Origin: an archaeon GW2011_AR15
GTDB taxonomy: Archaea; Nanobdellota; Nanobdellia; Woesearchaeales; GW2011-AR15
Direction of reading: 5' to 3'
NCBI GenBank assembly: GCA_000830295.1
Contig: CP010425.1
Span: forward strand, 806,884 to 870,883
Length of the DNA: 64,000 nt
This document shows, in pieces, positions 3,372 to 50,052 of the stretch. A model generated the notes under the pieces. It did no database searches. It saw only the letters and a list, made by a program, of their open reading frames with translations, and was not told the origin of the DNA. Every line of letters begins with the position of its first letter. Positions within the stretch are counted from its first letter, which is position 1. Both the position numbers and the translations under genes were made by a program.

Positions 3372-3380
3372 TTTAATCTA

Positions 3381-6587: not shown

Positions 6588-6866
6588 TATACTTTGATAT
6601 TATAGTATTTATTTTTGTCGATATTTTGGCATCTGTTTCTCTACATATCTCTTTAACCTTCTCATATAAATTTCTATCGATTGAGATGCTTATTTTTACC
6701 TTTGTTACATCATTTTTCATAAAGTATTACTTTCATTACTTTTCCTACTTATATATTTTTGCTAAACTCAAACGCAAACCAACCATATTGGTTGGCTCCT
6801 GAGCCCGAAAATAATTGGCATTTTCGAGGGGTTTATTAATGGGACAGCATCTACAATGCTGGGAGA

Positions 6867-8336: not shown

Positions 8337-9951
8337 GAAGCTTCTGAAGCGTTTTTCCGAATTTGGTCTTCCCTATTGAATAGGTTAATTTGAAAAGTGG
8401 ATATGTAACAGAATTTCTCAGTTCTCCAAGGCGTTTTTCCAGGAAATCCACTTTCTGCTTAAACGCCTTCAGCTCTTTCTCAGTACTATTCTTCTCAGCT
8501 TTCAGAGTTTCCCAGGAGGTAATAAGGCCGTTTATCTCAGCATCCCTTTCTATCAATATTTTTTCAAGCTCGTGTTGTTTTTCCTTTAAATCTGATGCTT
8601 TCATTTTTCTTGACTCTATCTCTTCCTGAAGATTTAGGATATGCTTATCCCTCTTTTCTATCTCTTCTTCCAGCTTTTTTATGCTACCCTCCTTCCTGTC
8701 CCTTTCATCCCTCAGGCTCATGAACACCTCGCGCCTGCTGTCCAGTAGCTGGCTATGCCGGAACTCAGTTTTTGTCTTGTCAACAGACGGCTTCCAGCAG
8801 AAATTATCCAGAGGGCCGACCAGCTTATCCCATGCGTTATCAGAAACAAATTTCTCAATGTTCTTTTTCATAGCAGCCTTGTCTTTTTCACTTAATTTTA
8901 AAACCACGCTGGCAGTCTCTTCCGGAGTTTTTCCATCAATAACAACTCCTGTCTGGTATCTTTTCACCAGCTCTGCGACAGTATCCCCGCCGCTTACAAT
9001 AACAGGCAGCCTGCCGTACATTGCCTCGGAGACCCTTGTCCTGTAGGATAATTCTGTCTCCAGTATGCCCTGCGGATAAGTTGCAATGAACAAGTCAGAT
9101 TCGTTATAGATGCTATCAATATCCTCATAATCAGCATAGTCAAACAAAAAGACGGACTTGTTCAGCATTTTCTTATCTTTCACGAACCTGTAGAATTTGT
9201 TATAATTATCTTCGTAAAGTTTTTTGTAGACAAACGGGCTCTGTGCCCCGACAACAGCCAGAACATACTTATCACTTTTCTTCGAGATTTCATGCATTAT
9301 TCTCGCTGTCTGCATAGGGTCAAGCCAGTTGAAGAAAGTGCTCATCCACAAAATTATTTTTTTATCTCCAGGAATAGCTTTTCTCAGAATCTTTTTTTTC
9401 CCAAGGGGCTTTCCTGATTTCACACCGAAGGGGACAATTCCAACAAGATTTCTTTTCCTATTATATGGGTTTACTCTCCCCACGGCAGCCAGCATTCCAA
9501 GATAATACCTTCTTTGCCTTTCACTCGCACAGATGAAATAATCACCGTACTGGAAGGGAATCAGGGTTGAAAGGAATATGTCATCTGTAAACCTCCAGAA
9601 ATCACTTTGTGTTTTCTTATAATCGTAATGGATATGTTCAAGAAGGTAAGGGGCATAGACATCAACAACAATTGGGATTTTTACCCTGCTCAGGAATTCA
9701 TGGTCATCAAACCATATCTGTATAAAGGCGACATCGTATTTTCTTATGCCTTTAAGTATCTGTGCAGGAATGTAGCTGATGAATCTTATATTCTCCCTGG
9801 TAAGCTCCTTTCCCCTGTCCTTTTCAGCAATAGTAACCTTATGCCCTTTTTTTGTAAGGGCTTTGGCTAATTCCCATAACCTGATGCTTGGTCCAAAGGT
9901 CTTCCCGTCAGAAAAAACCTTCTTGTGGCTGAACATGATTATCTTAGACAT
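8329..9951 (-). CDS. GT4-family (GT-B) glycosyltransferase with a ~150-aa C-terminal coiled-coil extension
   Basis: Rossmann GT-B N-half (KGHKVTIAEKD...). C-half ...PVIVSGGDTVAELVKRYQTGVV... is typical of glycosyl transferase group 1. The K/E-rich heptad tail is ERDRKEGSIKKLEEEIEKRDKHILNLQEEIESRKMKASDLKEKQHELEKILIERDAEINGL. Confidence 0.65.
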   Translation of the reverse strand: MSKIIMFSHKKVFSDGKTFGPSIRLWELAKALTKKGHKVTIAEKDRGKELTRENIRFISYIPAQILKGIRKYDVAFIQIWFDDHEFLSRVKIPIVVDVYAPYLLEHIHYDYKKTQSDFWRFTDDIFLSTLIPFQYGDYFICASERQRRYYLGMLAAVGRVNPYNRKRNLVGIVPFGVKSGKPLGKKKILRKAIPGDKKIILWMSTFFNWLDPMQTARIMHEISKKSDKYVLAVVGAQSPFVYKKLYEDNYNKFYRFVKDKKMLNKSVFLFDYADYEDIDSIYNESDLFIATYPQGILETELSYRTRVSEAMYGRLPVIVSGGDTVAELVKRYQTGVVIDGKTPEETASVVLKLSEKDKAAMKKNIEKFVSDNAWDKLVGPLDNFCWKPSVDKTKTEFRHSQLLDSRREVFMSLRDERDRKEGSIKKLEEEIEKRDKHILNLQEEIESRKMKASDLKEKQHELEKILIERDAEINGLITSWETLKAEKNSTEKELKAFKQKVDFLEKRLGELRNSVTYPLFKLTYSIGKTKFGKTLQKLLK

Positions 9952-18828: not shown

Positions 18829-21800
18829 CTAGGATAATATCTTTAATTTTTTCTTCACCTCTGCTGGTTTTTTCTTTGCCTGCTCATCATAAAGATTCAC
18901 GAGGGGAGTCTGCACGCCAAGTTCTTTGCAGAGTGCTGCTATCCTCTTTACCCTTTCTTTCCTTATCTCATAAGTGTTAGTCAGATCTGAAGTATGCCAC
19001 TTGTAAAACCCGTCATTTTCATTAGGCACAACAATTCCTGCCTTTTCCGGCTCGGCTGTAAGATTTGTTCCTGCTATTAATAAACATGGAGTAAGGCTTG
19101 AAATCATCTTTATATATTTGGCGTGGCTCTTTACAAAATCATAAGTTTCCATAAATTCTTTTTCGCCTTCACCAGGGTATCCGATTATAAGGTTTATGCC
19201 GATAGTTATTCCTGCATTGTGCATCCTCGGCAGCAGGTCCTGCAGATGTTTCATCCTGTAGGGCTTGTTCATTTTCTCAAGCACGGTATCAGAGCAGCTT
19301 TCAACACCGAACACCATCACTCTACAGCCGGCCATCCTCATTTTCCTCAAAAGCTGGTCTGACATTCTTGAGTTTACAATTCCCTGGGCAGACCAGTTTA
19401 CCTCCAGGTTCCTCTTTATTATATGGTTGCAGATCTCTTCCAGAGCCTTCAGATTCCCGTTGATGACAAGGTCCCTGAAATTAAAGCTGTTAACCCCGTA
19501 GTTTTTTATGTGCATCTCCATCTCATCCACGACATCCTTGGCAGGCCTTGCAGTGTAATTTGCCCTGTACATCCAGTCAAGGCAGAAATTGCATCTTGCG
19601 ACACATCCCCTGCTGGCTATCATAGGAAGGGAATTTTCTTTGTATTTTTTCAGGTTAAATTCCATAAAAGTAGGAGATGCCAGTTCTCCAAGGTCCTTTT
19701 CAAAATGCCATGGATGCATCTTCTCTTTTTCTTTTCTCGGGCCTAATTCCCCAGAGCTGTTGGCTTTTAACACAACCACGCCAGGCAAGTCTTCAATCGG
19801 CTGATTTTCTTTTAATCTTTGGACTATTCTCGGCATCATTAACTCCGCTTCCCCTATCACAGCGAAGTCAATATAATCCTTCATTTCAGACTGCCAGAAA
19901 TAGCCATCGTCGCTGTTAGGGCCGCCTATGCATATCTTTAGCTCAGGATTGTTTTTCTTGAGGATCTTTGCCAGCATGCATGAAAAATTATAATTAGCAG
20001 CATTTACAGACAGGCCTACAAGCACAGGCTTGTCATCCATGATCCGCTTTATCATATTGTTCATATATGGTTTATAATTCTGGAAGAGGTATTCGTGGAA
20101 TTTTTCTTCAGACCATTTGAAATATTCCTCCATGTGCCATGCCCTCTTATCATTTTCAGGCGCAAGATTATAGAGGTCAATATTCATATCAAAGACTTCA
20201 GTTTTTACTCCGTGCTTTTTCAGGTTTGAAGCAAGGTATGCAATGCCGAGAGGAGGCATCAGGACATCCCACGGCGGGCACATGATGAGGAAGACGTCGG
20301 TTTTTCTCACTATCTCTTTTTCTTTATACCCGGCAAAAGCAGAGAGATTATCTTCATATACCTCAAGATTTAATTCTTTGGCAAGATTAAGTAATCTTCT
20401 TAATCTCCCTTTTCTTATGCTGTCTGTATTAGTTCCGTCTTTTGTCCTCCACCTGACTTCAGCTACACTATTATCTTCAGGCAGGATAATCCCATATTCG
20501 TCTTTGTTTTCCATGAGTTCTGAGTTGTATACAACATTGCAGGTTTTTGCATTGCAAATTCTATCAATGTACTGCCTATTTCTTTTTATGAAATCAAGGG
20601 TCATCTGGAAATCCTCTTCTGTTTCCCCAGGATAGCCTACTATGAAGTTTGGCTGGGCATTAATCCCCATTTCATAGGAATATTTCAGAACTTTCTCTAT
20701 TGTTTCAATAGTTGTGTATTTTTTCATTGCTTTCAATATCCTATCAGATCCGGTCTCAACACCGAACATCAAAACATCACACCCGGCCCGCTTCATCTTT
20801 TCCAGCAATTTCTGTGTAAGATTTTTCATTGGTATGGCATTGGCAACCCACCCTATTTTCAACTTATGACTTATAATAAGATCACAGAATTTATTTAGTT
20901 CGGGTATATTGCCATTTATCAGCAAATCACTAAAATTAAATTTAGTAATTCCTTTCTGGACATGATAATAAATCTCCTGGAATACCTGCTCAGCAGGCCT
21001 TACCCTGAACTTTCCCATTATATTCACATCATTGCAGAAAGTACATTCTCCAATGCATCCTTTAGAAAAATAGAGGGCAATCCTCTCCTGGGCGATATAA
21101 TCTTTATTGTAGTCTATTTTCAGGGCTTTAGACTTGCTTAGGTCAAATGCTTCCCTTTCTTTAAACTTTCCTTCATGCCGGAAGATAAAAATACCGGGAA
21201 TACCTGAAATTTCAAGATAGGTTTTTTTTGCTTTTATAGCATCCACCAGTTCTATAATTGCTTCCTCTCCATCTCCAACCACAAAATAATCTATGGTTGA
21301 CTTCCTGAATCTTTCCAGTTCTCTCTTTACAGAGCATGAAGGCCCGCCGACTACAATTTTTACATTATTATCAATATTCTTAATTAATTTAGCTAATTCT
21401 ATGATCATTAATGTATTTTCCTGATAGGCGGAAAATCCGATAACTCTGGATGTCTGCACCAATTCTTTTGCAAATTCAACCAAATCCACCTTAAATCTCT
21501 TTTTTAATTCTTCAAAGAAAGGATATTCTGTCCAGTTGATTTTTAAATCCTGGTGCCAGTATTTCTGCAGGTCTTTATGGCGCCTATACAGCTTTAGATT
21601 TATATCACATATCTCCGCATTGAGTCCATGTGAAACCATATATTCTTTCAGGTAATTTACCCCAGTCGGCGGAGTATTCACTCCCCATACAGGGCAGACA
21701 ACAAGTGCCAGATCCACAGGTTCATTCTTTTTCTTGTCCTCCCCTGACTGCGATAGATTTGAGAAATACACATCATAGCCGAGCTCTTTTACAAATTCAT

Positions 21801-23130
21801 ACGCTCTTTTTGCCCTGTCTAACCTTACTTCATAAGTAAGCGTTCCGTCTGACCACGCTACAGGGTCAGTACTCGTTATTCCCAGCCTTCCGGAAGCAAG
21901 GCCTATAGGCGCTCTTTTGGGAAGAATGCAGGTATTGATGTTAGTTATACCTGTTATCACATCCCTGTTCCTTTTTATGAACTGGAGAGTCTCCTGGAAC
22001 TCCTCTTCCGTCTCTCCAGGATAGCCGACTATAAAGTTTGGCTGCACATTGATTCCTGCCTCCCTTGTCCACTTCATTATCCTTTCTGCATCTTCTGCTG
22101 AAAACATCTCATACTTATTCATCTTCTTGAGCACAGAGTTTGAGCCTGACTCAATCCCGAAATTAATAGTGTAGCAGCCGGCGTCCGCCATTTTGAAGAG
22201 AAGCTCTTTCGGCATGTCCTTTCTTGCAATGGCCAGGCATATCCATTTTATTTTCAGGTTGTTTCCGATTATCAGGTTGCATAATTTTTCCAGTTCTTCA
22301 TAGTTTCCGTTTATTGCAAGGTCATGGAACCAAAAATGTGCAATCCTGTTTACATAGGCATGATATCTTAGTTCATTATAGACATCGACTGGGTCTCTTG
22401 TCCTGTGGTGGCCCTGGAACGGCTTGTCCTCACAGAATCCGCAGTTTGCTATGCATCCCTGTGAGAACCTCATGCCTATTGTCTTTTCAGTATATCTGGA
22501 CAGGTCGAGTTCTTCATAGGTAGGGAAGGGAAGTTTTTCCAGGTCAATAAGCTGTCTTGGAGCATATTTCTCAGGATATTTGCTTGATTTCAGACCTTTT
22601 ATTTCTGATAGTTGCTCAATAGATTTTCCTCTCTTTATTCCCTGCATAAGCTCAAGAATTGTATCCTCTCCTTCCCCAACAACAAAAAAATCAGCATAAT
22701 CCTTGTAATATTCCCTTTCTTCAGGCAGCCATACGCCCTTCCCGCCGAGGATTATTTTTATGTCTTTGTCTAGGAATTTTACAGATTTCATCAGCTCAAA
22801 GGAGTAGAAAATGCTTGCTGCGGATATTGAAAACCCAAGGGCAAGCGGTTTTTCATCCGCTATTCTTCTGGCGAGTTTCTCAAAATCAAACTTCAGCAGA
22901 GGCTTCAGCTTTTCAAACCTGTCTTTCTCCATCCAGAAATGGGCTTTTTCGTTTATCCAGTATCCCTTATCCTTTGCCCGATGATATTCCTCTATATTCA
23001 GGTCCAGTATCTTTGTTGCTATGTCATTTACCCTAAGGTATCTGGAGATGGATGCCAGGCTCATCGGAGGCATGTTTATTCCCCATACAGGGCACTGAAT
23101 CAGGAGTATATCCGGTTGTATGCATATCAC
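18829..23130 (-). CDS. Triple-module cobalamin-binding radical SAM fusion protein (three complete B12-binding plus radical SAM units in one 1433-aa polypeptide)
   Basis: Three CxxxCxxC cores spaced ~470 aa apart: SQGCIANCGFCEDKPFQGHHRTR, SKGCIGECTFCNDVNIMGKFRVR, SRGCVARCNFCLDWMYRANYTAR. Each is preceded by a class-B N-terminal motif (LIQCPVWGINMPP, LVVCPVWGVNTPP, LIMCPPWDVLMPP). The reading frame is uninterrupted. Confidence 0.75.
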   Translation of the reverse strand: MICIQPDILLIQCPVWGINMPPMSLASISRYLRVNDIATKILDLNIEEYHRAKDKGYWINEKAHFWMEKDRFEKLKPLLKFDFEKLARRIADEKPLALGFSISAASIFYSFELMKSVKFLDKDIKIILGGKGVWLPEEREYYKDYADFFVVGEGEDTILELMQGIKRGKSIEQLSEIKGLKSSKYPEKYAPRQLIDLEKLPFPTYEELDLSRYTEKTIGMRFSQGCIANCGFCEDKPFQGHHRTRDPVDVYNELRYHAYVNRIAHFWFHDLAINGNYEELEKLCNLIIGNNLKIKWICLAIARKDMPKELLFKMADAGCYTINFGIESGSNSVLKKMNKYEMFSAEDAERIMKWTREAGINVQPNFIVGYPGETEEEFQETLQFIKRNRDVITGITNINTCILPKRAPIGLASGRLGITSTDPVAWSDGTLTYEVRLDRAKRAYEFVKELGYDVYFSNLSQSGEDKKKNEPVDLALVVCPVWGVNTPPTGVNYLKEYMVSHGLNAEICDINLKLYRRHKDLQKYWHQDLKINWTEYPFFEELKKRFKVDLVEFAKELVQTSRVIGFSAYQENTLMIIELAKLIKNIDNNVKIVVGGPSCSVKRELERFRKSTIDYFVVGDGEEAIIELVDAIKAKKTYLEISGIPGIFIFRHEGKFKEREAFDLSKSKALKIDYNKDYIAQERIALYFSKGCIGECTFCNDVNIMGKFRVRPAEQVFQEIYYHVQKGITKFNFSDLLINGNIPELNKFCDLIISHKLKIGWVANAIPMKNLTQKLLEKMKRAGCDVLMFGVETGSDRILKAMKKYTTIETIEKVLKYSYEMGINAQPNFIVGYPGETEEDFQMTLDFIKRNRQYIDRICNAKTCNVVYNSELMENKDEYGIILPEDNSVAEVRWRTKDGTNTDSIRKGRLRRLLNLAKELNLEVYEDNLSAFAGYKEKEIVRKTDVFLIMCPPWDVLMPPLGIAYLASNLKKHGVKTEVFDMNIDLYNLAPENDKRAWHMEEYFKWSEEKFHEYLFQNYKPYMNNMIKRIMDDKPVLVGLSVNAANYNFSCMLAKILKKNNPELKICIGGPNSDDGYFWQSEMKDYIDFAVIGEAELMMPRIVQRLKENQPIEDLPGVVVLKANSSGELGPRKEKEKMHPWHFEKDLGELASPTFMEFNLKKYKENSLPMIASRGCVARCNFCLDWMYRANYTARPAKDVVDEMEMHIKNYGVNSFNFRDLVINGNLKALEEICNHIIKRNLEVNWSAQGIVNSRMSDQLLRKMRMAGCRVMVFGVESCSDTVLEKMNKPYRMKHLQDLLPRMHNAGITIGINLIIGYPGEGEKEFMETYDFVKSHAKYIKMISSLTPCLLIAGTNLTAEPEKAGIVVPNENDGFYKWHTSDLTNTYEIRKERVKRIAALCKELGVQTPLVNLYDEQAKKKPAEVKKKLKILS

Positions 23131-29674: not shown

Positions 29675-29881
29675 CTAGTCAAGATATCCGAGGGATTTCA
29701 GCCTTTCTGCAATCTCAGTCTGGTTGTATTCTCTGCTTTCACCGGTGTAGTTGGTATCTTGATTGCCTTTATTTCTCAGCAAATAGACAATCTCCTCTTT
29801 GTTACTATAAACGAACAGAGAGATAATTACCAGGAATAAAATTACAGCGATTATAATCAATTTTTTTATTGAGTGTTCCAT
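29675..29881 (-). CDS. Small single-TM protein (68 aa) ending in the ...ERLKSLGYLD motif
   Basis: Hydrophobic helix IIIAVILFLVIISLFVY, then a 40-aa polar tail. 16-nt overlap with the upstream gene. The C-terminal motif is shared with two neighbouring enzymes. Confidence 0.4.
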   Translation of the reverse strand: MEHSIKKLIIIAVILFLVIISLFVYSNKEEIVYLLRNKGNQDTNYTGESREYNQTEIAERLKSLGYLD

Positions 29882-31065
29882 ATTCCCATTAGCCTGTTAA
29901 TCCTTTCTTTCTCCATTCTGGACGACCGGTATATAGTCTCCCTTTTTCCCTGCCTGTTGAAATAAGGGAACCAGTATTCCCATACAATCTCTTTATCCGG
30001 GGTGACTTCTATTACATGGCCTTTCTCGCTCTCTGAAATCAATGTGTTCCCATTAGGCAGCCTCTGGACAGAGCCCATAGACTCGCTGAAAAAGCTGTCA
30101 GGCGGATTGCCTGTATAATTCCAGACAATCTCCTGCTTCAGCGGGTCCAGCTCAAGCACTCTGGAATAATCTCTCGTTTCTCCTCCGTTGTCAAAAAGGA
30201 GTATGTTTCCGTTTGCCAGCATCGTAGGCATATGAGTGCCTTCCAGAAAATCAGGCCCTGATGCCCACACAATCTCTTTTGAATCTTTATCCAGGATAAT
30301 CAGCAGGTTGACATTATGCAGGCTCAAAAGCATGTTTCCCTGCTGAAACCTGCTGTCTGTCTGGTCCAGGCTATTTTCAGGCAGCTCCTGGACAGAGTTT
30401 ATGTGATAATAGTCATATATATCTATATTGTCATCTTCTTTGGCAAACAATTTTGCCCATATGTATTCCGGAATTTCAAGGCTGGATTCATAATGGCGTT
30501 TTCTAATCTCATCAAAATGGTCAAATGTTGACCACCTGTCTATTGTCTCCCCGGTTTCAGATATTCTTATTATGCTGTCAAATAATACTTTTCTGCCCTT
30601 ATAGGCTTTCTTTTCCCTTGATATTGTCAGGAAAGTGTGATTGTATGACCTCCTCATGTCATGGTGAATCATTATGTTTTTTTTCAAGAGCAATGAAAAA
30701 TTTTTGTCATATAGTGCAAAATAGTTGTCATTGCCTCCCCAATCCCCGTCAGCTACTACCCCGTCATCAAATAATATCTGCAGGTTCCCGTCTCCGGGGA
30801 GAGTCACCAAAAGGTTGCCTTCCATATCGATTATAAACCTGCCGTCAACTACAGTGTAGCCGTCATATGCCCTGTCTTTGTCATAAAGCACAACTCCAGA
30901 CAGGTTCCTGTCCTGCACATCTTCTGTGTATTCCAGATAAGGAAGAGACCTTAATTTCTCAAGCCCGAGCTGGGACCTATACTCAGCTTCCATATATGAA
31001 GAAAACACTGAAAAGAGTCCAAATAGGATGAGCAGCACAATGCCGAAGATAAGTATCCTTTTCAT
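29866..31065 (-). CDS. Membrane-anchored beta-propeller protein, arylsulfotransferase (ASST)-like
   Basis: N-terminal TM helix. Repeated propeller-like segments (GNILLFDNGG, PNGNTLISESEKGHVIEVTPDKEIVWEY, DYYHINSV). The ASST assignment is tentative. Contains EKLRSLPYLEY after the TM helix. Confidence 0.45.
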   Translation of the reverse strand: MKRILIFGIVLLILFGLFSVFSSYMEAEYRSQLGLEKLRSLPYLEYTEDVQDRNLSGVVLYDKDRAYDGYTVVDGRFIIDMEGNLLVTLPGDGNLQILFDDGVVADGDWGGNDNYFALYDKNFSLLLKKNIMIHHDMRRSYNHTFLTISREKKAYKGRKVLFDSIIRISETGETIDRWSTFDHFDEIRKRHYESSLEIPEYIWAKLFAKEDDNIDIYDYYHINSVQELPENSLDQTDSRFQQGNMLLSLHNVNLLIILDKDSKEIVWASGPDFLEGTHMPTMLANGNILLFDNGGETRDYSRVLELDPLKQEIVWNYTGNPPDSFFSESMGSVQRLPNGNTLISESEKGHVIEVTPDKEIVWEYWFPYFNRQGKRETIYRSSRMEKERINRLMGIWNTQ

Positions 31066-31066
31066 A

Positions 31067-31873
31067 TTACATATAGCCGAGGCTTCTCAGTTTCTGCATA
31101 TTATATTCTTTCTCTGTGTCCCTGCCCTGCCTTTCTGAGTTTCTGTCTTTGTCTATCTCCTTTATTATTTTGTCGATTGTATCTGCTCTGGATTTTACAG
31201 GGGAAGAGCAGCATTTGCAGCCGATGCTCCTGAACCTTTTCCCGTCTTTGGCAAAATACAGATTCACGACAGGGATATTCTCTTTTTTTATGTATTGCCA
31301 GATATCCAGCTCTGTCCAGTGGAGTAAAGGGTGTATCCTCACATGGTTGGAGTCTTTGAATTCTGTTGCATATATATCCCATCCTGACAGTTCTGCATCC
31401 TGAGCTGAGCCTATGCCTGCTTCATTCTTCTCTTCTTTCGTGACATTCCACCTGAATTCCCTGTCTCTTGGGGAGAAATATCTTTCCATGCCCCTTATTG
31501 AATTCTCGTCTCTCCTTATGCCTACTATAACTGCATCGAATTTGTGCTTTTCAATCTCCTTTTTCAGTATCTCGGTTTTTCTTGACGTGCATGTTTTTTC
31601 TTTGAACTTTTCTTCGCTTTTCCCGACCACCAGGTCAAGTTTCCACTCTTTTGCAATCCTGTCCCTGAATTCATATGTTTCCTCATACTCTGTTTCAGTA
31701 TCTATGTGCAGGACTTTGAAGGGGATCTCGTCGTAGAATGCTTTTCTGCAGAGATACAGCAATGTAGTGGAATCTTTCCCTATGCTCCACAGCACAACAG
31801 GGTTCTTAAATCTCTTCTTTACTTCCCGGAGTATGAAGATTGATTTGCTTTCTAAATCCTTCAAATTTGCCAT
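31067..31873 (-). CDS. Sulfate adenylyltransferase small subunit (CysD)-like PP-loop ATP pyrophosphatase
   Basis: LWSIGKDSTTLLYLCRKAF PP-loop. HPLLHWTELDIWQYI and SERQGR motifs, consistent with my recollection of CysD/PAPS-reductase family proteins. C-terminus ...QKLRSLGYM. Confidence 0.7.
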   Translation of the reverse strand: MANLKDLESKSIFILREVKKRFKNPVVLWSIGKDSTTLLYLCRKAFYDEIPFKVLHIDTETEYEETYEFRDRIAKEWKLDLVVGKSEEKFKEKTCTSRKTEILKKEIEKHKFDAVIVGIRRDENSIRGMERYFSPRDREFRWNVTKEEKNEAGIGSAQDAELSGWDIYATEFKDSNHVRIHPLLHWTELDIWQYIKKENIPVVNLYFAKDGKRFRSIGCKCCSSPVKSRADTIDKIIKEIDKDRNSERQGRDTEKEYNMQKLRSLGYM

Positions 31874-31919
31874 TGGATAAATTATTCTATATCTGGTTTA
31901 TCAATCTTTCTTTTTGATT

Positions 31920-33206
31920 TTAAATGAGATATCCAAGGGAGAGAATTCTTTTTCTGATCTCATCACTTACATCATGCTCCCTTTCCGCAATTCCTATCTT
32001 TTCCCTGAGTTTGTCATTCCTCTGCAAAAACTTGAGGTATTCATCTTCAAATCTTTTGCCCGGATACAGCAGGCTATTTTTTTCAAGAGGGTCATTGGAA
32101 AGGTTGTAGTATTCAAAGTAATCGGGCCTTAATATATATTTTTCAGTTTCAGTCCTTATCGAGATTCCGCCCCTTGTTTCTGTAAAGAGAAATTCATGGA
32201 GCCTGTCTTTTTTTCCTGCAATTAAATCATATGTGCTTTTTCCCTGGAATGTTTTTGGCAACCTGTATCCGAGCGTATGCAGTATTGTTGGTGCGATATC
32301 CAGGGACTGGACCTGGGCAGTGATTCTTTTTACATTTACATCAACTTCTTCAGGAAACCTTATTATCATGGGGACTTTGATTATCTCCTCATACGGGTCG
32401 CCAAGCCCGTGGCCTATTTTTCCGTGCTCCAGGAATTCTTCCCCATGGTCTGATGTGAAAATTAGTATTGTATTGTCCAGAAGTTCAAGTTCTTCCAGCT
32501 TACTATATAACCTTCCAATATACTGGTCATATTCATGCAGCTCAGAATCATAGGCGTTTTTTATTATTTCAACATCACTTTCATTTAATATGCTGAATTC
32601 CTCTTCCTCCCACAAATCAAAATCAGGCTTGCTCATGTTTAGTATCTTGCTCGGCTGGTTGTATACATGAGTGTCATATGAATGTATGAAAAGGAAAAAC
32701 CTCCTGTCTTTCACTTCCTCAAGATGCTTTATCAGCTTTGGGTAAAAATCAGAAAAGGACTGCCCTTCTTCATCATCAAAGAAATCAAATCCTTGGTCGT
32801 ATCCGAAGTCCCTGCTGACAAAAACATCCCCGGTATAGCCGAAGGTGTAGTATCCCTTTCCCCGCAGGAACTTCTGTATTGTCATTGTGTTCGGGTTTAT
32901 GAAATTGTCAACTGAGAGGACGCCGTGTGCTGAGCCGTATAAAGAAGCCAGCATGCTCACATGCGAAGGCAGGGTCCAGTCATAATTCACAAAGGCATTC
33001 TCGAACAATACGCCTTTTTCAGCCAGCCTGTCTATGTTTGGGGTCACATTGCTGTTTCCATAGGCTCCAAGACGGTCTGCCCTTAGGGTATCCTCGGATA
33101 TCAGGATTACATTATACTCCTTTGGCTTTTGGATTACATCTGCAATTACAGTTATAGAGATTACGACAGTTATAAGCAGGAAAAAGAAAATCAGGACTTT
33201 TTTCAT
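31920..33206 (-). CDS. Sulfatase-family (alkaline phosphatase superfamily) enzyme, secreted or anchored
   Basis: Signal/TM, then ILISEDTLRADRLGAYGN metal-binding motif and DWTLPSHVSMLASLY active-site region. C-terminus ...KRILSLGYLI. Confidence 0.7.
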   Translation of the reverse strand: MKKVLIFFFLLITVVISITVIADVIQKPKEYNVILISEDTLRADRLGAYGNSNVTPNIDRLAEKGVLFENAFVNYDWTLPSHVSMLASLYGSAHGVLSVDNFINPNTMTIQKFLRGKGYYTFGYTGDVFVSRDFGYDQGFDFFDDEEGQSFSDFYPKLIKHLEEVKDRRFFLFIHSYDTHVYNQPSKILNMSKPDFDLWEEEEFSILNESDVEIIKNAYDSELHEYDQYIGRLYSKLEELELLDNTILIFTSDHGEEFLEHGKIGHGLGDPYEEIIKVPMIIRFPEEVDVNVKRITAQVQSLDIAPTILHTLGYRLPKTFQGKSTYDLIAGKKDRLHEFLFTETRGGISIRTETEKYILRPDYFEYYNLSNDPLEKNSLLYPGKRFEDEYLKFLQRNDKLREKIGIAEREHDVSDEIRKRILSLGYLI

Positions 33207-35107
33207 TTTAAGAGAGGCTTGCCGTCAATCTGCTCTGGCATACTTATATTCAGGAAATTCAGCACCGTCGGCGCAATGTCAACAAGGCTGGCTGAGTCCT
33301 GATTGATCTGTTTATTTGAAAACAAGACACCAGGCACAAATGTCGGGTCTATAAGATGGTCTCCCTGCCATTTTTTTGTGTTGTCAAGTATTGCATTCCT
33401 CGTGAATCCGCCGATTGCGGACTGCCATTCCATCCTGTATCCCGGATTGAAGCCTATTATGAGGTCAGGGGCATTCTCAAGCGAGTCTCCGGAATAGATG
33501 TCTCCTCTCCTGTAAACCTTATTTATAACTTTCCTTCCTGTTTTTGGGTCTGTCAGATTTTCAAGCTTTTCAATTATCTCATTTTCCACTGCCTCTTTAT
33601 CATCTATGCTTACTGTCCCGTGCTTTTCCCTTCCTTCAAGATTTATGTATATGCTGGAGAAGCCGACAGAATATGCTTTTGTCTCATCCCATATCACATA
33701 CTCAAACAGGCTGTCTTCCACACCCTGCTTTATTACTGTGTTAAGCTTCATGAATCCGTTCTGGGAAAGCCAGGTGTTTATGTTGACAGCGCGCTCAAAT
33801 GAGCTGAATCCGTGGTCTGAAAAAATCAGGACCATGGTGTCATTGCCTACTTCTTTCATTATCTTGCCAAGCAGCTCGTCTTTCCTCATATAGTAGCCTG
33901 TGAGGACCTCATTCATGACAATCTCATCAGAGATGTTGGTCAGCACTTTGTTGTCCCAGAAAAGATGCTGCAGCCTGTCAGATGAATCAAATGCAAATGC
34001 CAGCACACCGGTTTCCTTCTCCTTGAATTCATTGAATTCTTTCCAGAACATGGCTTCCCTTTCCTTTTCTATTTCATAGACCTGGCTGAGGAATGCTTTT
34101 TCATCTAGGAAGCCGTTTACATATCCATCGGTTTCTTCAGGCATCCCTAAAGTGTAATACAGCCCGAGCTCATCTGCCAGCTCCTTTGCATAACCTTTGG
34201 GTGAAGAAATATCAACAATGGGGTTTGTCGGGTCAATCTGGACTGTTGTTATGTACATCTGGAAGGGTTCAGTGCTTATCAGGTATGCCTTGAACATGCC
34301 GTGCACACTCCTGAGGAAACCGGCATCAAACTTCACTTTTACCCAGTCGCTCCATTTCTCCCTGTCCAGCTGGTACTCCCTTCCGTCTATGGTTAGTATG
34401 GCAGAATATTCGTCTGTTATTTCAATATCCATGCCTTCTTTTACGTCCTCTATTTTGCTGAATTTCCTGACTTTTGGGCCGAGGACATTGGTGTGAATTG
34501 ACGAGCCTTCTTTTGTTACATGTATTACTTTCTGCTTGTCTATATCTTCTTCTGTGTAGAAAGCATAGCCGCTCAGGAACCCCTTTATGTCAGGGACTCC
34601 AAGGCCCGAGAACAGGTTTCCATTAACCTTTTCAGGCGGAAAAGTTGCAGGCCACCTTATTACTGAAGTCGGAATTCCTGCCTTGCTTGTAAGTTCCCAG
34701 AAAGGGGTTGCCCTTATCAGAGAGGCATAGCTTCCTCCGAATCCTTTCTGGCTTGTTATTGAAAGCTCAGGGAGGTAGGTCTGCGGATCCCTTATTATGA
34801 AATCAAACATATTGTGCTTCCCAGGATTTGTCCCTGTGGAGATTGAAGTCCAGGCAACAGGGCTTTCAGGAGGATTGCTTGTTTCAAGCTTCAGGAATGC
34901 ACCTGTTTCAGCCAGTTTCTTGAAATTTGGAAGTTTTCCTTCTGCCATAAGCTTGGCAGTTGCCTTATAATCCATGGCATCTATCCCAATAAGAAGAACC
35001 TTGCCTTTTGGACTGATTTTATCTCCCCCCTTTGAAAGCGCAAATATGAAATACAGGATAACTACAATAACCACGACGTTAATAAACCTTTTTAATGCCT
35101 TATTCAT
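33203..35107 (-). CDS. Alkaline-phosphatase-superfamily type I phosphodiesterase / nucleotide pyrophosphatase-like protein
   Basis: N-terminal TM helix, then VLLIGIDAMDYKATAKLMAEGKLPNFKKLAETGA, typical of the Phosphodiest (ENPP-like) family. 634 aa. Confidence 0.65.
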   Translation of the reverse strand: MNKALKRFINVVVIVVILYFIFALSKGGDKISPKGKVLLIGIDAMDYKATAKLMAEGKLPNFKKLAETGAFLKLETSNPPESPVAWTSISTGTNPGKHNMFDFIIRDPQTYLPELSITSQKGFGGSYASLIRATPFWELTSKAGIPTSVIRWPATFPPEKVNGNLFSGLGVPDIKGFLSGYAFYTEEDIDKQKVIHVTKEGSSIHTNVLGPKVRKFSKIEDVKEGMDIEITDEYSAILTIDGREYQLDREKWSDWVKVKFDAGFLRSVHGMFKAYLISTEPFQMYITTVQIDPTNPIVDISSPKGYAKELADELGLYYTLGMPEETDGYVNGFLDEKAFLSQVYEIEKEREAMFWKEFNEFKEKETGVLAFAFDSSDRLQHLFWDNKVLTNISDEIVMNEVLTGYYMRKDELLGKIMKEVGNDTMVLIFSDHGFSSFERAVNINTWLSQNGFMKLNTVIKQGVEDSLFEYVIWDETKAYSVGFSSIYINLEGREKHGTVSIDDKEAVENEIIEKLENLTDPKTGRKVINKVYRRGDIYSGDSLENAPDLIIGFNPGYRMEWQSAIGGFTRNAILDNTKKWQGDHLIDPTFVPGVLFSNKQINQDSASLVDIAPTVLNFLNISMPEQIDGKPLLK

Positions 35108-35298
35108 TTTTTGCTGTTCTTCAGTCTCTTTATTATGTTTTTTACAGGGTTTATTATCAGGAAGGCTATGACTGCCCCCAGAACAGCCACAATCGTCTGC
35201 CAGAAAGAGCCGATTATAATCCCGCCGGTTCCCGGGTCAATGTATGCGTAGCTACTGTGAACTAACAATATGAAAATCACTAAATATGTCCCCCACAT
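35104..35298 (-). CDS. Small two-TM membrane protein (64 aa)
   Basis: 4-nt overlap with the downstream NPP-like gene suggests translational coupling. Mostly hydrophobic, with a YIDPGTGG motif. Confidence 0.3.
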   Translation of the reverse strand: MWGTYLVIFILLVHSSYAYIDPGTGGIIIGSFWQTIVAVLGAVIAFLIINPVKNIIKRLKNSKK

Positions 35299-35337: not shown

Positions 35338-36615
35338 TTGGTTTTGATGAAAGAATATTTAAAGAGAGAAAATTTAGTTTGTGAAATGGAATTCAAGAAA
35401 GAAATATTACTTTTCCTTATTTTTATACAAATTGTTGCAGTTTTATTTCTTGGATTTAATATGGTAAAAGACACTTATTTATCAAATAATTCTTATAAAT
35501 GTAAAGAATGCAATATAGTACTCATAATTATAGATACAGTGAGAGCAGATCACATTAGCTTTTATGGTTACCATAAAAATACAACACCTAACTTAGATAG
35601 TCTCGCAAAGAAAGGAGTTTTTTTTAACCAGGCAATTAGCCAGGGGTCCTGGACAGCGACATCAGTACCTTCTTTAATTACCTCCAGATACCCTTCGACA
35701 ATCGAGGTTTACCTATTTTCAGATACGAATATATTAGCAAGAGAGATACCAACTCTCCCAAAGGTATTGCAAAAAAAAGGTTATAGAACAGCGTTTATCA
35801 GTTCTCACCCACTTCTGTTTGTAGAAGAGGTAGGTATGTTTGAAACATTCATAAAATCCGATGGTGCTAAGGCAGATAACTTAACAAACGAGGCAATTCA
35901 ATGGATCAGAGAAAATGGTGAAGATAGATTTTTTCTACAACTACATTATATGGATGTGCATGATATTCCTTTCTTTGGTAATCAAACTACCTTGGAAGAA
36001 GGCATCTCAATGTATGATGAAGCACTTACATTTACCGATTCAAACATAAACAGACTTATAGAAGAACTTAATAAACTAGGCATAGAAGATAAAACGATTA
36101 TAGTTTTTACATCAGACCATGGAGAGGGGATAAATGACCACGAACAACTGTTTGAACATAGTGCATACTTGTATGATTATTTAATAAATGTTCCACTAAT
36201 AATCTACAATCCAAAAGCAAAAATTACAGGATACAACGTAGATTGTCAAGTTCAGCTTGTGGATATTGTTCCAACCATGTTAAATATTCTAGGAGTAAAA
36301 GAACAAGAGTCATTTCAAGGTAAAAACTTATTCCAATACACTCAATTTGATGTTTGTACAGACTCTTCAATTAGTGAGCACATACAATTTGAGTTTTATC
36401 CTGATGATGCAATATACCTTTATGAACTTAAATCGTTTAGGGTTGGTAAGTGGCATCTAATACAAAACCTTAGCTCAGAAAAAGAACCATTTGAATTGTA
36501 TAATCTAGAAGAAGATGCCAGAGAATTAAATAACCTTATAGATAATTATACAGAGCTTAAACCAGAGTTAAATACTGAAATAATAAAAAGAATAGAGAAC
36601 AGAACTTTAATCTAG
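35338..36615 (+). CDS. Sulfatase-family enzyme (alkaline phosphatase superfamily)
   Basis: LIIIDTVRADHISFYGY metal-binding motif and SQGSWTATSVPSLITSRYP active-site region. The start may be the internal Met (MEFKKE...). Confidence 0.7.
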   Translation: MVLMKEYLKRENLVCEMEFKKEILLFLIFIQIVAVLFLGFNMVKDTYLSNNSYKCKECNIVLIIIDTVRADHISFYGYHKNTTPNLDSLAKKGVFFNQAISQGSWTATSVPSLITSRYPSTIEVYLFSDTNILAREIPTLPKVLQKKGYRTAFISSHPLLFVEEVGMFETFIKSDGAKADNLTNEAIQWIRENGEDRFFLQLHYMDVHDIPFFGNQTTLEEGISMYDEALTFTDSNINRLIEELNKLGIEDKTIIVFTSDHGEGINDHEQLFEHSAYLYDYLINVPLIIYNPKAKITGYNVDCQVQLVDIVPTMLNILGVKEQESFQGKNLFQYTQFDVCTDSSISEHIQFEFYPDDAIYLYELKSFRVGKWHLIQNLSSEKEPFELYNLEEDARELNNLIDNYTELKPELNTEIIKRIENRTLI

Positions 36616-37782
36616 GTTTTTTACTAACTCATAATTCTCCTTATTCTCCATCAGATTATCACATGTTTTGAGGCAGCCGACTTTTTCCACAAACCCAGGG
36701 TGTTCCTTTAGATTAACTCCTATCTGCCTGAACATCTTCTGCTTCTGTCCGTTCCAGATATCTCTGAATCTTTGTCTATTAATGTTTCCAGTAGCCACCA
36801 TAACTCCACGGCAGCACGGCGCAACATCTCCGTTTGCCATTATCCTTGAGAAAGTCCAGCCGACGGTGCAAGGAACCTTGTATATGATGTTGCTGTCGTA
36901 TCTGCCTGTTGTCACTGTACTGTTCGAGATCCTTCTCAGAAAATTATCCGGGTTGTCGATTTTTAGATCCCCATAGTGACCTTTATGGTATTTTTCATAA
37001 ATCCTTGCAAAGCTCTTTTTCAGCTCTTCCTGCTGTTTTTTGTTTAAAAGAAGAGAATCTGTCTCTCCGTCAATAGGATCAACCATCGTAAGGTAGACTT
37101 CACTTGCCTTGACTTCTCTGGCAAGCTCTATCATTTTTTCTATCTCTTTATAATTCAGGTTTGATATAACATTGGCAATAACAACTTTTGTTTTCCTGTT
37201 TATTGTACTGAAATACATCAAATTCCCCTTAATCCTGCTGAATGCTTCTTCTGTCTGGTTGGGATGTGTTTTCGCGTATGTTTTGGGAGTGGCTGCCCAG
37301 AGGCTTACAGTAAGATTATCCACCCCGTATTCTACTAATGTATCCAGTTTCTTTTTGTTCATTAAGGAGAAGTTGGTTGTTATATCAAGCCTGATTCCCC
37401 TGCTCTTTATCAGCTTTACAATCTCCATTATTTGAGGGTGTATGAAGGGCTCGCCGCCCCCCGTCAGCCGAATTTCCTCTGTTTTTAGCTCTTTCAGGTC
37501 TTCTACAAGCTGCTTTATTGTCTCAAACGGAAGCTGCTGCCTGAACCATTCTTCTTCAGGCTTTTTTTTGTTTAACATAGGAGAATAAGTCCAGCAGGCA
37601 ATGCAGTTGAGGTTGCACTTGTTTGTTATGTCTATTACAACATATTTTGGGCCAAGAGAGGCATTAAATTTCCTGTTTTTTATCTCGCTTATTCTAATAC
37701 TGGCATGATTTTTTTCATTTGCTAAATTCCTTTTAAACAGCTTTAGCTGCGATTCCAGATAAGATACCATAGATAAATACAA
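36607..37782 (-). CDS. Radical SAM/SPASM-domain protein (paralog family member 4), candidate anaerobic sulfatase-maturating enzyme
   Basis: VIDITNKCNLNCIACWTYSPML, GGEPFIHP, C-terminal PCTVGWTFSRIMANGDVAPCC...GCLKTCDNL. Convergent with, and overlapping, the 3' end of the sulfatase gene. Confidence 0.7.
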   Translation of the reverse strand: MYLSMVSYLESQLKLFKRNLANEKNHASIRISEIKNRKFNASLGPKYVVIDITNKCNLNCIACWTYSPMLNKKKPEEEWFRQQLPFETIKQLVEDLKELKTEEIRLTGGGEPFIHPQIMEIVKLIKSRGIRLDITTNFSLMNKKKLDTLVEYGVDNLTVSLWAATPKTYAKTHPNQTEEAFSRIKGNLMYFSTINRKTKVVIANVISNLNYKEIEKMIELAREVKASEVYLTMVDPIDGETDSLLLNKKQQEELKKSFARIYEKYHKGHYGDLKIDNPDNFLRRISNSTVTTGRYDSNIIYKVPCTVGWTFSRIMANGDVAPCCRGVMVATGNINRQRFRDIWNGQKQKMFRQIGVNLKEHPGFVEKVGCLKTCDNLMENKENYELVKNLD

Positions 37783-48084: not shown

Positions 48085-50052
48085 TTATTTATTAATTTCC
48101 CACCTGCTGTCCAGATAAACAATGCCTAAATCTCTTATCTCCCTGCTCTTTACTTCAAACGAGTATCTCTTATCATGCAGGTCATAAGGCGTGAATGAAT
48201 TATACGGATGGACAGCAGCACTAACCAGGTAGGTCCCTTCCAGCAAAGGCAGCTTATCTATGATATAGGAGACGCTCCCTTTTCCCTTAACATAGGGGAT
48301 TTCAATATTGTGGAATTTAGTATTCGGCCCTGTTATCTGCGTTCCGTCATCTCCATGGATTGTTATGCCGAAAACAGGCTTTTCAACCTTCTTTTCAGCA
48401 TCAAACATAATTTTTATCTTGACCTGTTCCCCGGTATAAAACAACTCTTTATGCTCTTCTTTTGAATCCAGAAAAACCACATTTGTTATCCTGACAGGTC
48501 TCTGTTCTTTCTCATCATCCTCTTTTACTGATATTGATAATTTTGTTAATTCTTTCCTAAATTCAAGCAATCTCTCCAGTTCTTTTTCTATTTTTTTCTT
48601 TTCAGCCGGTTTTGCCTCTTCTAGCTCAAGCTTATGCACACTAATTAGTTCATGCAGCTCGTGCAGATGTGTTCTTATAATACCGGATATCTGGTTCTCG
48701 TTATCTTCAGGGTCAAAATGCGGGACAGTTTTGAGCATATTTTTGCATTCTTTTATTGAATGGATTATAGAAGCAAACTCAGAGTTATCTATCCTGAGTG
48801 AGATCAGGAAGTCAAACATATATTTCCGCAGATAGACCGCGCTTGGCTTGTCAACATGATTGAATCCCTCTTTGTATCTGGCAAACACTCTGGAAATAAC
48901 TTCTTCCCTTTCCTTTTCTGCTGTCTGCAGCTGGACTTCCATCTCCAGCAGCCTTATTCCCAGAAGTATCTCTTCAAACTCAAAAGATTTTTTTGTAACA
49001 GCCTGCTTTATAGTCAGCGCTTCCTGCGCCTGCTTCAGGTTCTCCAGCAATTCCTTTTTCTGCTGGGGAGAGAAATTCTTTACTTTGTTTTCCAGCCAGA
49101 CATAATTCTTGTCAGGAAGAATGATAAGCATGTCGCACAGGTCAATAAGCTGTGATCTTAAGGTTGCTTCCCGATATCCCAATGATTCCAGCTGCTTTTC
49201 CAGCCTGCTTCCCATGAAACTGTCTATAATAGGGAGATTGATTTTTCTTTTCAGATCTTTTCTTAATTTTTGAGTTTCATCTGAAACTGAAAGATATGAT
49301 TTGAAATTCTTCTTCAGCAAAAAGTAATTGTAAACCCTTTCTGATTTTTCGCTGTGATTCAGATAATCCAGTATAACTTTCTGCGCAACTCCCTGGCTTT
49401 TCACGACTCCGTGCTCAAGAAAAATTGCCCTGTCACAGATTTCCCTTACTGTTGACATGTCATGGCTCACAATGACCATTGTTTTTCCCTGCTCTTTCAT
49501 TATCCTTATCCTGTTCAGGCTTTTTTTCTGGAATTCCTCATCACCAACTGCAAGAATCTCATCTATCAGGATCACTTCAGGGTTATTTGACATTGCTATT
49601 GCAAAAGCCAGCCTGAGCTTCATGCCTGTGGAGTAATCTTTAAGCTTGACATTGATGAATTTTTCAAGCTGCGAGAAGTCTACTATCCTGCTGAAATTCT
49701 TCTTTATCTCAGAAGTGCTCATCCCAAGTATTGAGCCATATAAAAAGACATTTTCCTTCCCAGTCAGTTCCTCCCTGAACCCAGAGCCTGTATCAAGGAA
49801 AGTCAGCACTTTTCCGTTTACTTTTACATTTCCTTTTGTCGGAGACAAAATTCCCGCGATTACCTTGAGAAGGGTTGTTTTTCCTGAGCCATTCGGGCCG
49901 ATTATGCCAAGGCACTCCCCTTTTTTCACAGCTAAATTAATGTTCTTCAGGGCATAGAAATCTTCTTTTTCTGATTTTCCAATAAGCATGCTGTCTTTTT
50001 CATGGATCAGGTTAAATTTCTTAGACACGTTTTTCAGTTCTACAGTATTCAT
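48085..50052 (-). CDS. wzt: ABC transporter ATP-binding protein, Wzt/TagH-type polysaccharide exporter ATPase with a long C-terminal extension
   Basis: Walker A GIIGPNGSGKTTLLKVIAG, signature LSGGMK-like YSTGMKLRLAFA, Walker B ILIDEILAVGDEEF. ~400-aa C-terminal region with a coiled coil and a terminal beta-rich domain. 4-nt overlap with the Wzm gene. Confidence 0.75.
   Translation of the reverse strand: MNTVELKNVSKKFNLIHEKDSMLIGKSEKEDFYALKNINLAVKKGECLGIIGPNGSGKTTLLKVIAGILSPTKGNVKVNGKVLTFLDTGSGFREELTGKENVFLYGSILGMSTSEIKKNFSRIVDFSQLEKFINVKLKDYSTGMKLRLAFAIAMSNNPEVILIDEILAVGDEEFQKKSLNRIRIMKEQGKTMVIVSHDMSTVREICDRAIFLEHGVVKSQGVAQKVILDYLNHSEKSERVYNYFLLKKNFKSYLSVSDETQKLRKDLKRKINLPIIDSFMGSRLEKQLESLGYREATLRSQLIDLCDMLIILPDKNYVWLENKVKNFSPQQKKELLENLKQAQEALTIKQAVTKKSFEFEEILLGIRLLEMEVQLQTAEKEREEVISRVFARYKEGFNHVDKPSAVYLRKYMFDFLISLRIDNSEFASIIHSIKECKNMLKTVPHFDPEDNENQISGIIRTHLHELHELISVHKLELEEAKPAEKKKIEKELERLLEFRKELTKLSISVKEDDEKEQRPVRITNVVFLDSKEEHKELFYTGEQVKIKIMFDAEKKVEKPVFGITIHGDDGTQITGPNTKFHNIEIPYVKGKGSVSYIIDKLPLLEGTYLVSAAVHPYNSFTPYDLHDKRYSFEVKSREIRDLGIVYLDSRWEINK

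Follow-up and report, generated by a model that had tools for sequence, protein, structure and literature searches.

The Gene Cluster and Its Shared Tails

The DNA analyzed here, called the window throughout, is a stretch of 64,000 nucleotides from the archaeon GW2011_AR15 (Woesearchaeales; contig CP010425.1, positions 806,884 to 870,883). Our subject is a cluster of six genes on its minus strand, spanning positions 29675-35298, the products of which include CysD, the small subunit of sulfate adenylyltransferase (ATP sulfurylase), and relatives of sulfatases, phosphodiesterases, and sulfotransferases. Three of these products end in nearly identical peptides built around Leu-Gly-Tyr, the LGY tail, which a preliminary description of the same DNA had considered a tag specific to the operon. 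The coordinates and peptides reported there agree with the list of open reading frames (ORFs), and its gene calls, namely an NPP-like enzyme (PF01663), a sulfatase-like enzyme (PF00884), a CysD (NF003587), and an ASST-like protein (PF14269), are essentially right. The genes and peptides in question are the following, with positions counted along the window:

35104..35298, minus strand: 64-aa membrane protein with the motif A-Y-I-D-P-G-T-G-G; first gene of the cluster, without LGY tail
33203..35107, minus strand: NPP-type phosphodiesterase-like enzyme, 634 aa, with N-terminal membrane anchor (PF01663, E 5.5e-38); ends ...DGKPLLK, without LGY tail
31920..33206, minus strand: sulfatase-fold enzyme of the alkaline-phosphatase superfamily, 428 aa, with N-terminal anchor and Thr78 in T-L-P-S-H (PF00884, E 7.2e-43)
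31923..31952, minus strand: C-terminal tail of the sulfatase-like enzyme, KRILSLGYLI (ORF translation and tails of homologues)
31067..31873, minus strand: CysD, short form, 268 aa, without signal peptide (PF01507, NF003587)
31070..31096, minus strand: C-terminal tail of CysD, QKLRSLGYM (tail in 120/120 homologues)
29866..31065, minus strand: ASST-like beta-propeller protein, 399 aa, with N-terminal membrane anchor (PF14269, E 1.2e-25; PF05935, E 2.4e-14)
30928..30960, minus strand: EKLRSLPYLEY, residues 36-46 of the ASST-like protein, directly after its N-terminal hydrophobic helix (from the sequence)
29675..29881, minus strand: 68-aa protein consisting of a membrane helix, a variable linker, and an LGY tail (ORF; counterparts in related loci)
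29678..29707, minus strand: C-terminal tail of the 68-aa protein, ERLKSLGYLD (ORF translation)

The pattern [KR][LI]xSLGY, followed by one or two residues, ends the sulfatase-like, CysD, and 68-aa proteins, and LRSLPY follows the anchor of the ASST-like protein. In a shuffle test, each of 53 non-overlapping ORFs of the window (20,453 residues) was shuffled 20,000 times: C-terminal tails of the form [LI]xxLGY, three of which are present, had a shuffled mean of 0.0097, whereas L.SL[GP]Y at any position, present four times, had a mean of 0.055; no shuffle reached 3 in the former case or 4 in the latter. The near identity of the tails on the three proteins, originally seen by eye, is confirmed by these figures and by the translations, and the statement that five such motifs lie far above chance holds for the tails and for the L.SL[GP]Y counts. 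It does not extend to the fifth copy taken alone, since a single internal match of this kind is about what the shuffles produce by chance:

49168..49197, minus strand: internal KQLESLGYRE, residues 286-295 of Wzt (gene 48085-50052, minus strand), in the linker between the ABC_tran and Wzt_C domains; probably outside the phenomenon

The codons underlying the tails differ between copies (CTCGGATATCTT, CTCGGCTATATG, CTTGGATATCTC), so that conservation lies at the level of the peptide, as had been proposed, and a repeat or regulatory element at the DNA level is ruled out.

The Tails of CysD and of the Sulfatase-like Enzymes

The CysD of the window scores 279.9 bits against NF003587 (cutoff 195), matches PF01507 (E 6.6e-41), and aligns with Pseudomonas syringae CysD (1zun_A, E 2e-51) through its last residues, besides conserving the PP-loop motif SIGKDS; by all these measures it is a bona fide member of the family. 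The tail is shared with the family at large. Each of its 120 best homologues, from archaea and bacteria (51-78% identity), ends in ...L[RK]x[LM]GY[MLC], typically ...MQKLR[SA]LGYM, and across 84 cysD loci the ending grades from ...KLRSLGYM to ...KLRARGYM in Nitrospina and ...KLRRDGYM in Verrucomicrobiota. The protein of Escherichia coli K-12 (b2752) ends in ...KKRQGYF and has in common with the window protein the pattern SERxGR...M..[KL][KR]..GY[FM]-COOH (SERQGRDTEKEYNMQKLRSLGYM). Compared with canonical CysD, the window form is short, lacking about 30 residues around position 210, and has L-R-S-L before the Gly-Tyr pair. In an AlphaFold2 model of the monomer, residues 246-268 have a predicted local distance difference test score (pLDDT) below 50, with a helix predicted at 254-264, and in this model the tail is unpacked. 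No role for the C-terminal tail of CysD is described in the texts that could be reached, which did not include the paper on the CysD-CysN structure (PubMed 16387658).

The gene context of this CysD is unusual. No CysN-like ORF occurs in the 64 kb, as the preliminary description had stated, whereas cysN is found in 74 of the 84 other cysD loci. Genes for CysD without adjacent cysN occur in DPANN, Altiarchaeota, and some Omnitrophota (the window; loci L008-L011, L013, L173, and L175). In those loci cysD overlaps the stop codon of the gene for the NPP-like enzyme, an arrangement of translational coupling, and the coupled cysD genes still keep the invariant tail; NPP-like genes are present in 28 of the 84 cysD loci.

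A comparable picture emerges for the sulfatase-like enzyme, 108 of whose 120 homologues (31-46% identity) have L..[LMIV]GY within six residues of the C-terminus. They belong to Omnitrophota, Thermodesulfobacteriota, Planctomycetota, Aminicenantes, Altiarchaeota, and other groups, with the consensus E-E-x-[IL]-x-[EQ]-L-[KR]-[AS]-L-G-Y-[LIV]-x; Gly and Tyr are invariant among the 112 homologues having GY within six residues of the end. Among 103 tail-bearing homologues, 89 are equipped with a signal peptide or an anchor. The AlphaFold2 model of the window enzyme has a mean pLDDT of 91, with a core above 95 and a tail helix (residues 415-423, pLDDT 73-81) after a 10-residue linker.

The endings of 120/120 CysD and 108/120 sulfatase-like homologues indicate that each protein of the window inherited its tail with its own family, so that the tail is not an invention of this operon. 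The notion of an operon-specific tag has consequently to be abandoned in its original form: the motif lies at the same position in the CysD and sulfatase families at large, as expected from ordinary family conservation. The related operons of Woesearchaeota that were compared do keep all the motifs, as had been anticipated for orthologous loci. In L175/L176, where CysD is 78% identical, the sulfatase ortholog ends in ...LQKLKSLGYIS and the ASST-like ortholog has ...DRLKSLPYLEY; in the L173 operon, where CysD is 72% identical to that of the window, the motifs are likewise kept. The L175 ASST-like ortholog (1118-2299) is split in two ORFs by a frameshift, by pseudogene formation, or by an assembly error, with DRLKSLPYLEY retained.

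The name of sulfatase requires qualification. A Foldseek search with the model gives TM-scores of 0.61-0.72 against S1 sulfatases (E ~1e-25), and the fold and PF00884 are shared with formylglycine enzymes, whereas the C/S-x-P-x-R motif is replaced by T-L-P-S-H, with Cys/Ser changed to Thr and Arg to His; alignment to a solved sulfatase places the Thr at the Cys/Ser position. Thr78 and His82 are conserved in 77 sulfatase-like homologues, and of the 76 in which the signature could be located, 65 have T-x-P-[SAT]-H. A Thr nucleophile is the hallmark of superfamily members that transfer phosphoryl or phosphodiester groups, such as NPP, EptA, and LtaS. Lacking the formylglycine motif of S1 sulfatases, the enzyme is, by its signature residues, not of the formylglycine type. 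Because Thr occupies the formylglycine position, both the name sulfatase and the label of sulfation operon are unproven. None of the PDB sulfatase alignments examined reaches into the LGY tail of the window enzyme.

Recurrence of the Tail across Unrelated Families

Beyond the window, the strict tail was counted on ORFs in all the loci examined, with this result:

RHH (ribbon-helix-helix) proteins: 107/113 ORFs
CysD: 70/101 ORFs
APS (adenosine 5'-phosphosulfate) kinase: 6/29 ORFs
NPP-like: 4/63 ORFs
Sulfatase-like: 3/21 ORFs
Sat: 0/43 ORFs
CysN: 0/83 ORFs
All other ORFs of at least 60 aa: 5/5934

The five "other" ORFs comprise three RHH proteins that BLAST had missed, the small membrane peptide, and one unrelated ORF, which gives a background rate of about 1 in 5,900 ORFs. 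The tail, with consensus ...[IVL]xx[KRQ]L[KR][AS]LGY[LIVM]x-COOH, has the form of a short amphipathic helix, hydrophobic at positions -8, -4, and -1, followed by Gly-Tyr and then by another hydrophobic residue. It is kept in orthologues while the flanks diverge, stands on unrelated families, and is modular in its placement; Tyr and Gly are invariant in the CysD, RHH, and sulfatase-like tails. These patterns of conservation indicate that it is kept under selection in each family, and that it recurs on non-homologous families tied genomically to sulfate activation and to sulfo- and phospho-ester chemistry: CysD, RHH proteins, a clade of exported Thr-type sulfatase-like enzymes, some NPP-like and ASST-like proteins, and membrane mini-proteins. 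In the window, the sulfatase-like, ASST-like, and small proteins carry a signal or anchor by their sequences, whereas CysD, like the RHH proteins of other loci, has no signal and is cytoplasmic. The tail is accordingly used, to judge from these predictions, on both sides of the membrane.

The RHH Family Preceding ATP Sulfurylase Genes

The most extensive of these families was found by searching for the tail in all ORFs of the 84 cysD loci, which yielded about 30 small tail-bearing ORFs (60-105 aa) beside cysD. Their body is a ribbon-helix-helix of the form ..TTVSIPxxLYxKIxxRIxGTGFxSVSDYVxYVLRE..., followed by an acidic linker and by the end ...[IV]KxRL[KR]ALGY[LIM][DE], and they match weakly PF01402 and the RHH domain of NikR. 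These RHH-LGY proteins occur only with CysD of the [LM]GY type (26/59 loci vs. 0/25 others), a comparison that is confounded by phylogeny. In a reverse search, 80 metagenome loci were retrieved by patterns of the RHH body and linker (with seven closer sequences), using neither the tail nor cysD. Directly downstream of the RHH-LGY gene there is a Sat-type ATP sulfurylase in 51 loci, CysD in 15, and an NPP-like gene in 5, so that a gene for ATP sulfurylase, sat or cysD, occupies that position in 66 of 80. The typical operon consists of RHH, sat, a DHH phosphoesterase, a PF00685 sulfotransferase or an NPP-like enzyme, APS kinase, and a sulfate transporter, and the RHH-sat arrangement is present in Aciduliprofundum-like and Thermococcus contigs. 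A cluster described for Methanothermococcus thermolithotrophicus (PMC10322725) has matching sat, DHH, and APS kinase genes.

The family profile matches at least 7,151 clusters, whose sole annotation is CopG family or RHH domain, and the tail is present on all 120 of the best hits. Similarly to the RHH repressors NikR, Mnt, and CopG/Arc, the proteins have an N-terminal RHH domain, albeit a weakly matching one, and are encoded upstream of the operon that they presumably control; in place of the C-terminal oligomerization or sensor domain of such repressors, however, they have the acidic linker and a tail of about 12 residues. Often a cysD locus has two different RHH-LGY paralogues within it or close by, one of the 'TTVSIP...GTGF' type and the other of the 'VTIKIP...' or 'VNIPIP...' type, and these are adjacent in L038 and L040, about 70 bp apart in L015 and L021, and about 4 kb apart in L023. 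The pairing hints at heteromeric regulators.

A further side of these operons concerns NPP-like proteins. Cytoplasmic forms of PF01663, of 425-470 aa and without signal peptide, are embedded in sat and cysDN operons:

L007 12158-13447: cytoplasmic NPP-like protein
L144 7370-8749: cytoplasmic NPP-like protein
L172 6849-8264: cytoplasmic NPP-like protein

Many cysDN loci provide further examples. In the Thermococcus contig, an NPP-like gene takes the slot that a PF00685 sulfotransferase has in the Aciduliprofundum-like operon, and our guess is that these proteins might have a role related to APS or to 3'-phosphoadenosine 5'-phosphosulfate (PAPS).

ASST-like Proteins and Membrane Mini-proteins

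The ASST-like protein of the window matches the ASST-type propeller domain (PF14269, PF05935). Among 150 representatives of its family, 46 have L[KRQE]x[LMI][GP]Y, in 44 cases just upstream of the propeller and in 2 at the C-terminus, the usual N-terminal form being LxxL[KR]SLPYxxW. The position of the motif is movable, being N-terminal in the window protein and C-terminal in the paralogues of locus L178. There, four adjacent exported enzymes, two ASST-like and two sulfatase-like, end in L[KER]ALGY[VIM][DE], with no cysD nearby. At 1399-9308 this locus has a run of genes for three ASST-like paralogues, two sulfatase-like enzymes, and two DUF3179 proteins.

Proteins of the 68-aa type are found in four lineages of Woesearchaeota, that of the window included, where only the membrane helix and the tail are conserved and the linker is variable: the L175 protein has 69 aa and ends in ...IIERLKALGYLE, that of L011 has 62 aa, and L173 has, directly after cysD, a 45-aa version formed by a membrane helix and ...LSQLNSLGYLS. 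Since these mini-proteins of 45-69 aa keep nothing other than helix and tail, the tail cannot pack on a catalytic fold there.

The other small protein of the cluster, with the A-Y-I-D-P-G-T-G-G motif, has relatives preceding NPP-like genes in L008 (7903-8091), L010 (1107-1340), and L173 (1460-1663). In some Omnitrophota (L014 4209-6272 and L034 10591-12642, both on the minus strand), the NPP-like enzyme itself begins with this segment as an N-terminal fusion, and for this reason the small protein looks like a membrane module split off from that enzyme.

A Docking Peptide or a Convergent Ending?

The recurrence of the tail raises a question: What could a peptide of a dozen residues do on proteins so different in fold and location? 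The explanation we favor, plausible although somewhat short of probable, is that the LGY tail is a modular peptide for intermolecular docking or assembly. Tethered to its protein, the peptide would bind to a partner subunit or to a second tail. In cytoplasmic CysD it would form a mobile arm at the C-terminus, and the RHH regulator would imitate this arm; for the sulfatase-like and ASST-like enzymes outside the cell it would serve for assembly or anchoring at the membrane, where the tail-only peptides would act as anchors or competitors. Association of tail with tail, or of tail with subunit, would need no additional receptor and would be workable in either compartment. An intermolecular action is suggested because the mini-proteins offer no domain on which the tail could pack, because the RHH proteins present it on a long acidic linker, and because the tail of CysD appears unpacked in the monomer model.

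Several points weigh against docking, and most of them speak at the same time for a different explanation, possible but in our judgment rather unlikely, according to which the endings are convergent and family-specific. Each would be a helix closed by a Schellman-type Gly cap, with an aromatic-hydrophobic anchor resting on the protein's own domain, and their co-occurrence in operons would be a by-product. A helix followed by Gly and an aromatic residue is indeed a common C-cap, the Schellman motif, and each tail is conserved throughout its family whatever the gene context. The looser ending of APS kinase, ..KLxELGY[IL], belongs to the last helix of a solved fold (7yq0, which ends ...VLKKLMELGYL), and the tail resembles helix 1 of the PG_binding_1 and PG_binding_2 domains in its V..L(Q/K)..L..LGY pattern, with weak Pfam hits (E 0.02-0.13); some of the recurrence could stem from structural endings that have converged. 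These helices of PG_binding domains and APS kinase differ from the tails, however, in being parts of larger folds, and in the APS kinases of the examined loci the Tyr and its neighbors vary (GFI, KIIET, GII), unlike in the CysD, RHH, and sulfatase-like tails. The tail of the sulfatase-like enzyme, modeled with moderate confidence, may pack on its own domain. Compartments matter as well: CysD and the RHH proteins are cytoplasmic and the sulfatase homologues mostly exported, so that one common receptor is unlikely, and the cytoplasmic and exported sets of tails may be functionally unrelated. Covariation between RHH and CysD tails was looked for in 36 loci, at the four positions -5, -3, -2, and +2, and none emerged. 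Moreover, most NPP-like and sulfatase-like genes near cysD have no tail, and one tail-bearing sulfatase homologue stands alone, without sulfur-related genes within 8 kb. Convergence alone is nevertheless difficult to reconcile with a tail that, against the background rate given above, is found on at least five unrelated, genomically linked families, with a Tyr that tolerates no replacement by Phe, Leu, or Trp in the CysD, RHH, and sulfatase-like tails. It also has to contend with the movable position in ASST-like proteins, with mini-proteins that have no domain to pack on, and with the apparently unpacked tail in the CysD model.

More specific forms of interaction can be envisaged. One that we deem improbable is docking in trans on a single pathway protein, which in the cytoplasm would be CysN or ATP sulfurylase, with the RHH protein mimicking the CysD tail, and outside the cell an NPP-like or ASST-like protein. 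The RHH tail (KERLRALGYLD) is close to that of CysD (MQKLRSLGYM), the two genes are adjacent, and the restriction of RHH-LGY to loci with [LM]GY-type CysD is in line with such mimicry, as is the finding that CysN contacts CysD at the site where EF-Tu holds the aminoacyl end of tRNA (PMC5770160). In lineages without CysN, the NPP-like gene is the constant neighbor of cysD and of the tail-only peptide. Yet RHH-LGY most often precedes sat operons having neither CysD nor CysN, the CysD tail is invariant also in loci without adjacent cysN, the window included, and the lack of covariation between RHH and CysD tails counts here too; no protein is common to all the contexts.

It is very unlikely, in our opinion, that the invariant Tyr is a site of covalent modification, by O-sulfation or a similar reaction, carried out by ASST-like enzymes outside and by PAPS-dependent sulfotransferases inside the cell, in which case the tail would be a substrate or a sensor; sulfation by the ASST-like enzyme was the second idea of the preliminary description. 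Strict invariance of the Tyr would fit such a function, as would the acidic residues common after it (GYLD, GYIE), the membership of all the families in sulfate activation or sulfo-ester chemistry, the clustering of ASST-like genes with tail-bearing enzymes in the window, L175, and L178, and the small PF00685 sulfotransferases within RHH-sat operons. The CysD of E. coli, however, has the GY[FM] end with no ASST-like or sulfotransferase gene next to cysDNC, and we know of no Tyr sulfation in that protein. Most tail-bearing proteins are without an ASST-like neighbor, the ASST-like enzyme itself carries the motif, and the window offers no route to PAPS.

The docking reading could be extended, with distinctly little likelihood at present, to a pathway-wide tail code for sulfate activation in archaea and anaerobic bacteria that includes sensing by RHH proteins and assembly of exoenzymes. 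The RHH repressor upstream of sat or cysDN would carry a mimic of the CysD tail and sense the state of the enzyme or of APS/PAPS, either by competition between tails or by modification of the invariant Tyr, and exported enzymes of the sulfatase-like, NPP-like, and ASST-like kinds would be assembled by this peptide on tail peptides anchored in the membrane.

Comparison with Other Short Peptides

The closest parallel in logic is offered by the cysteine synthase complex, in which the C-terminal tail of CysE docks in the active site of CysK, and other proteins mimic the CysE tail. Both cases combine a system of sulfur assimilation, a short C-terminal peptide, with docking established for CysE, and look-alike tails on unrelated proteins; the sequence (...GDGI) and the enzymes differ, the receptor is known for CysE, and the likeness is one of logic only. 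The complex is mentioned in PMC6829319.

Other short peptides that function at the extreme C-terminus resemble the LGY tail in position, and HbYX has in addition a critical Tyr. In the HbYX motif of proteasome activators, the Tyr is penultimate and follows a hydrophobic residue; this motif is ruled out, since Gly precedes Tyr in all the tails and two residues follow it in the sulfatase-like and small proteins. Sorting signals such as PGF-CTERM, PEP-CTERM, and LPXTG contain a membrane helix and a basic end. They are ruled out because the LGY tail has neither and is also present on cytoplasmic proteins, and C-terminal signals of PDZ type are excluded by sequence and by the occurrence of the tail in both compartments.

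Implications

The tail of CysD is a known, unexplained family C-terminus; full-text literature searches returned no account of the motif shared across families or of an RHH regulator of ATP sulfurylase genes. The operon-specific claim is downgraded, and the pathway-linked recurrence across families becomes the more interesting lead. If the tail were a docking or sensing peptide, it would open a way to study how sulfate activation is controlled in archaea and in many anaerobic bacteria, for which no regulator is known, and would point to the RHH family, very large and unannotated, as likely to regulate the sat and cysDN operons. The GY[FM] end of CysD, universally conserved yet never explained, would gain a possible role, and a widespread clade of Thr-type 'sulfatases' would be linked, together with the NPP-like and ASST-like exoenzymes, to the sulfate-activation pathway. 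A pathway-wide code, if real, would amount to an unrecognized principle of regulation and assembly, with a new regulator family of at least 7,000 sequence clusters. Were the tail only a convergent helix cap, there would remain ordinary family conservation and a correction of annotation, the 'sulfatase' not being a formylglycine sulfatase.

Genomic Context of the Cluster

The window is a surface-glycan island with GT1, GT2, and GT4 glycosyltransferases, Wzm/Wzt, a carbamoyltransferase, two asparagine synthases, a PMT-type transferase, and many radical-SAM (radical S-adenosylmethionine) genes. Its CysD locus recurs in several groundwater metagenomes. From this gene context, the operon probably acts on a glycan or lipid, to decorate or remodel it with esters of sulfate or phosphate; genes for CysN, CysC, Sat, a PAPS-type sulfotransferase, or RHH-LGY were not found within the 64 kb. 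Divergent from the cluster lies a second sulfatase-like gene:

35338..36615, plus strand: second sulfatase-like gene, 425 aa, divergent, Thr-type, without tail, ending ...RIENRTLI (PF00884, E 2.7e-51)

Its product is 31% identical to the first. A radical-SAM/SPASM gene (36607-37782, minus strand), one of at least five SPASM paralogues in the window, adjoins it. As both sulfatase-like proteins have Thr at the nucleophile position (TLPSH and TATSV), this neighbor is unlikely to be a sulfatase maturase, and we reject its assignment as an anSME producing formylglycine. With at least 11 such genes, the island is unusually rich in radical-SAM proteins, among them one of 1433 aa (18829-23130, minus strand) containing three tandem B12-binding radical-SAM modules.

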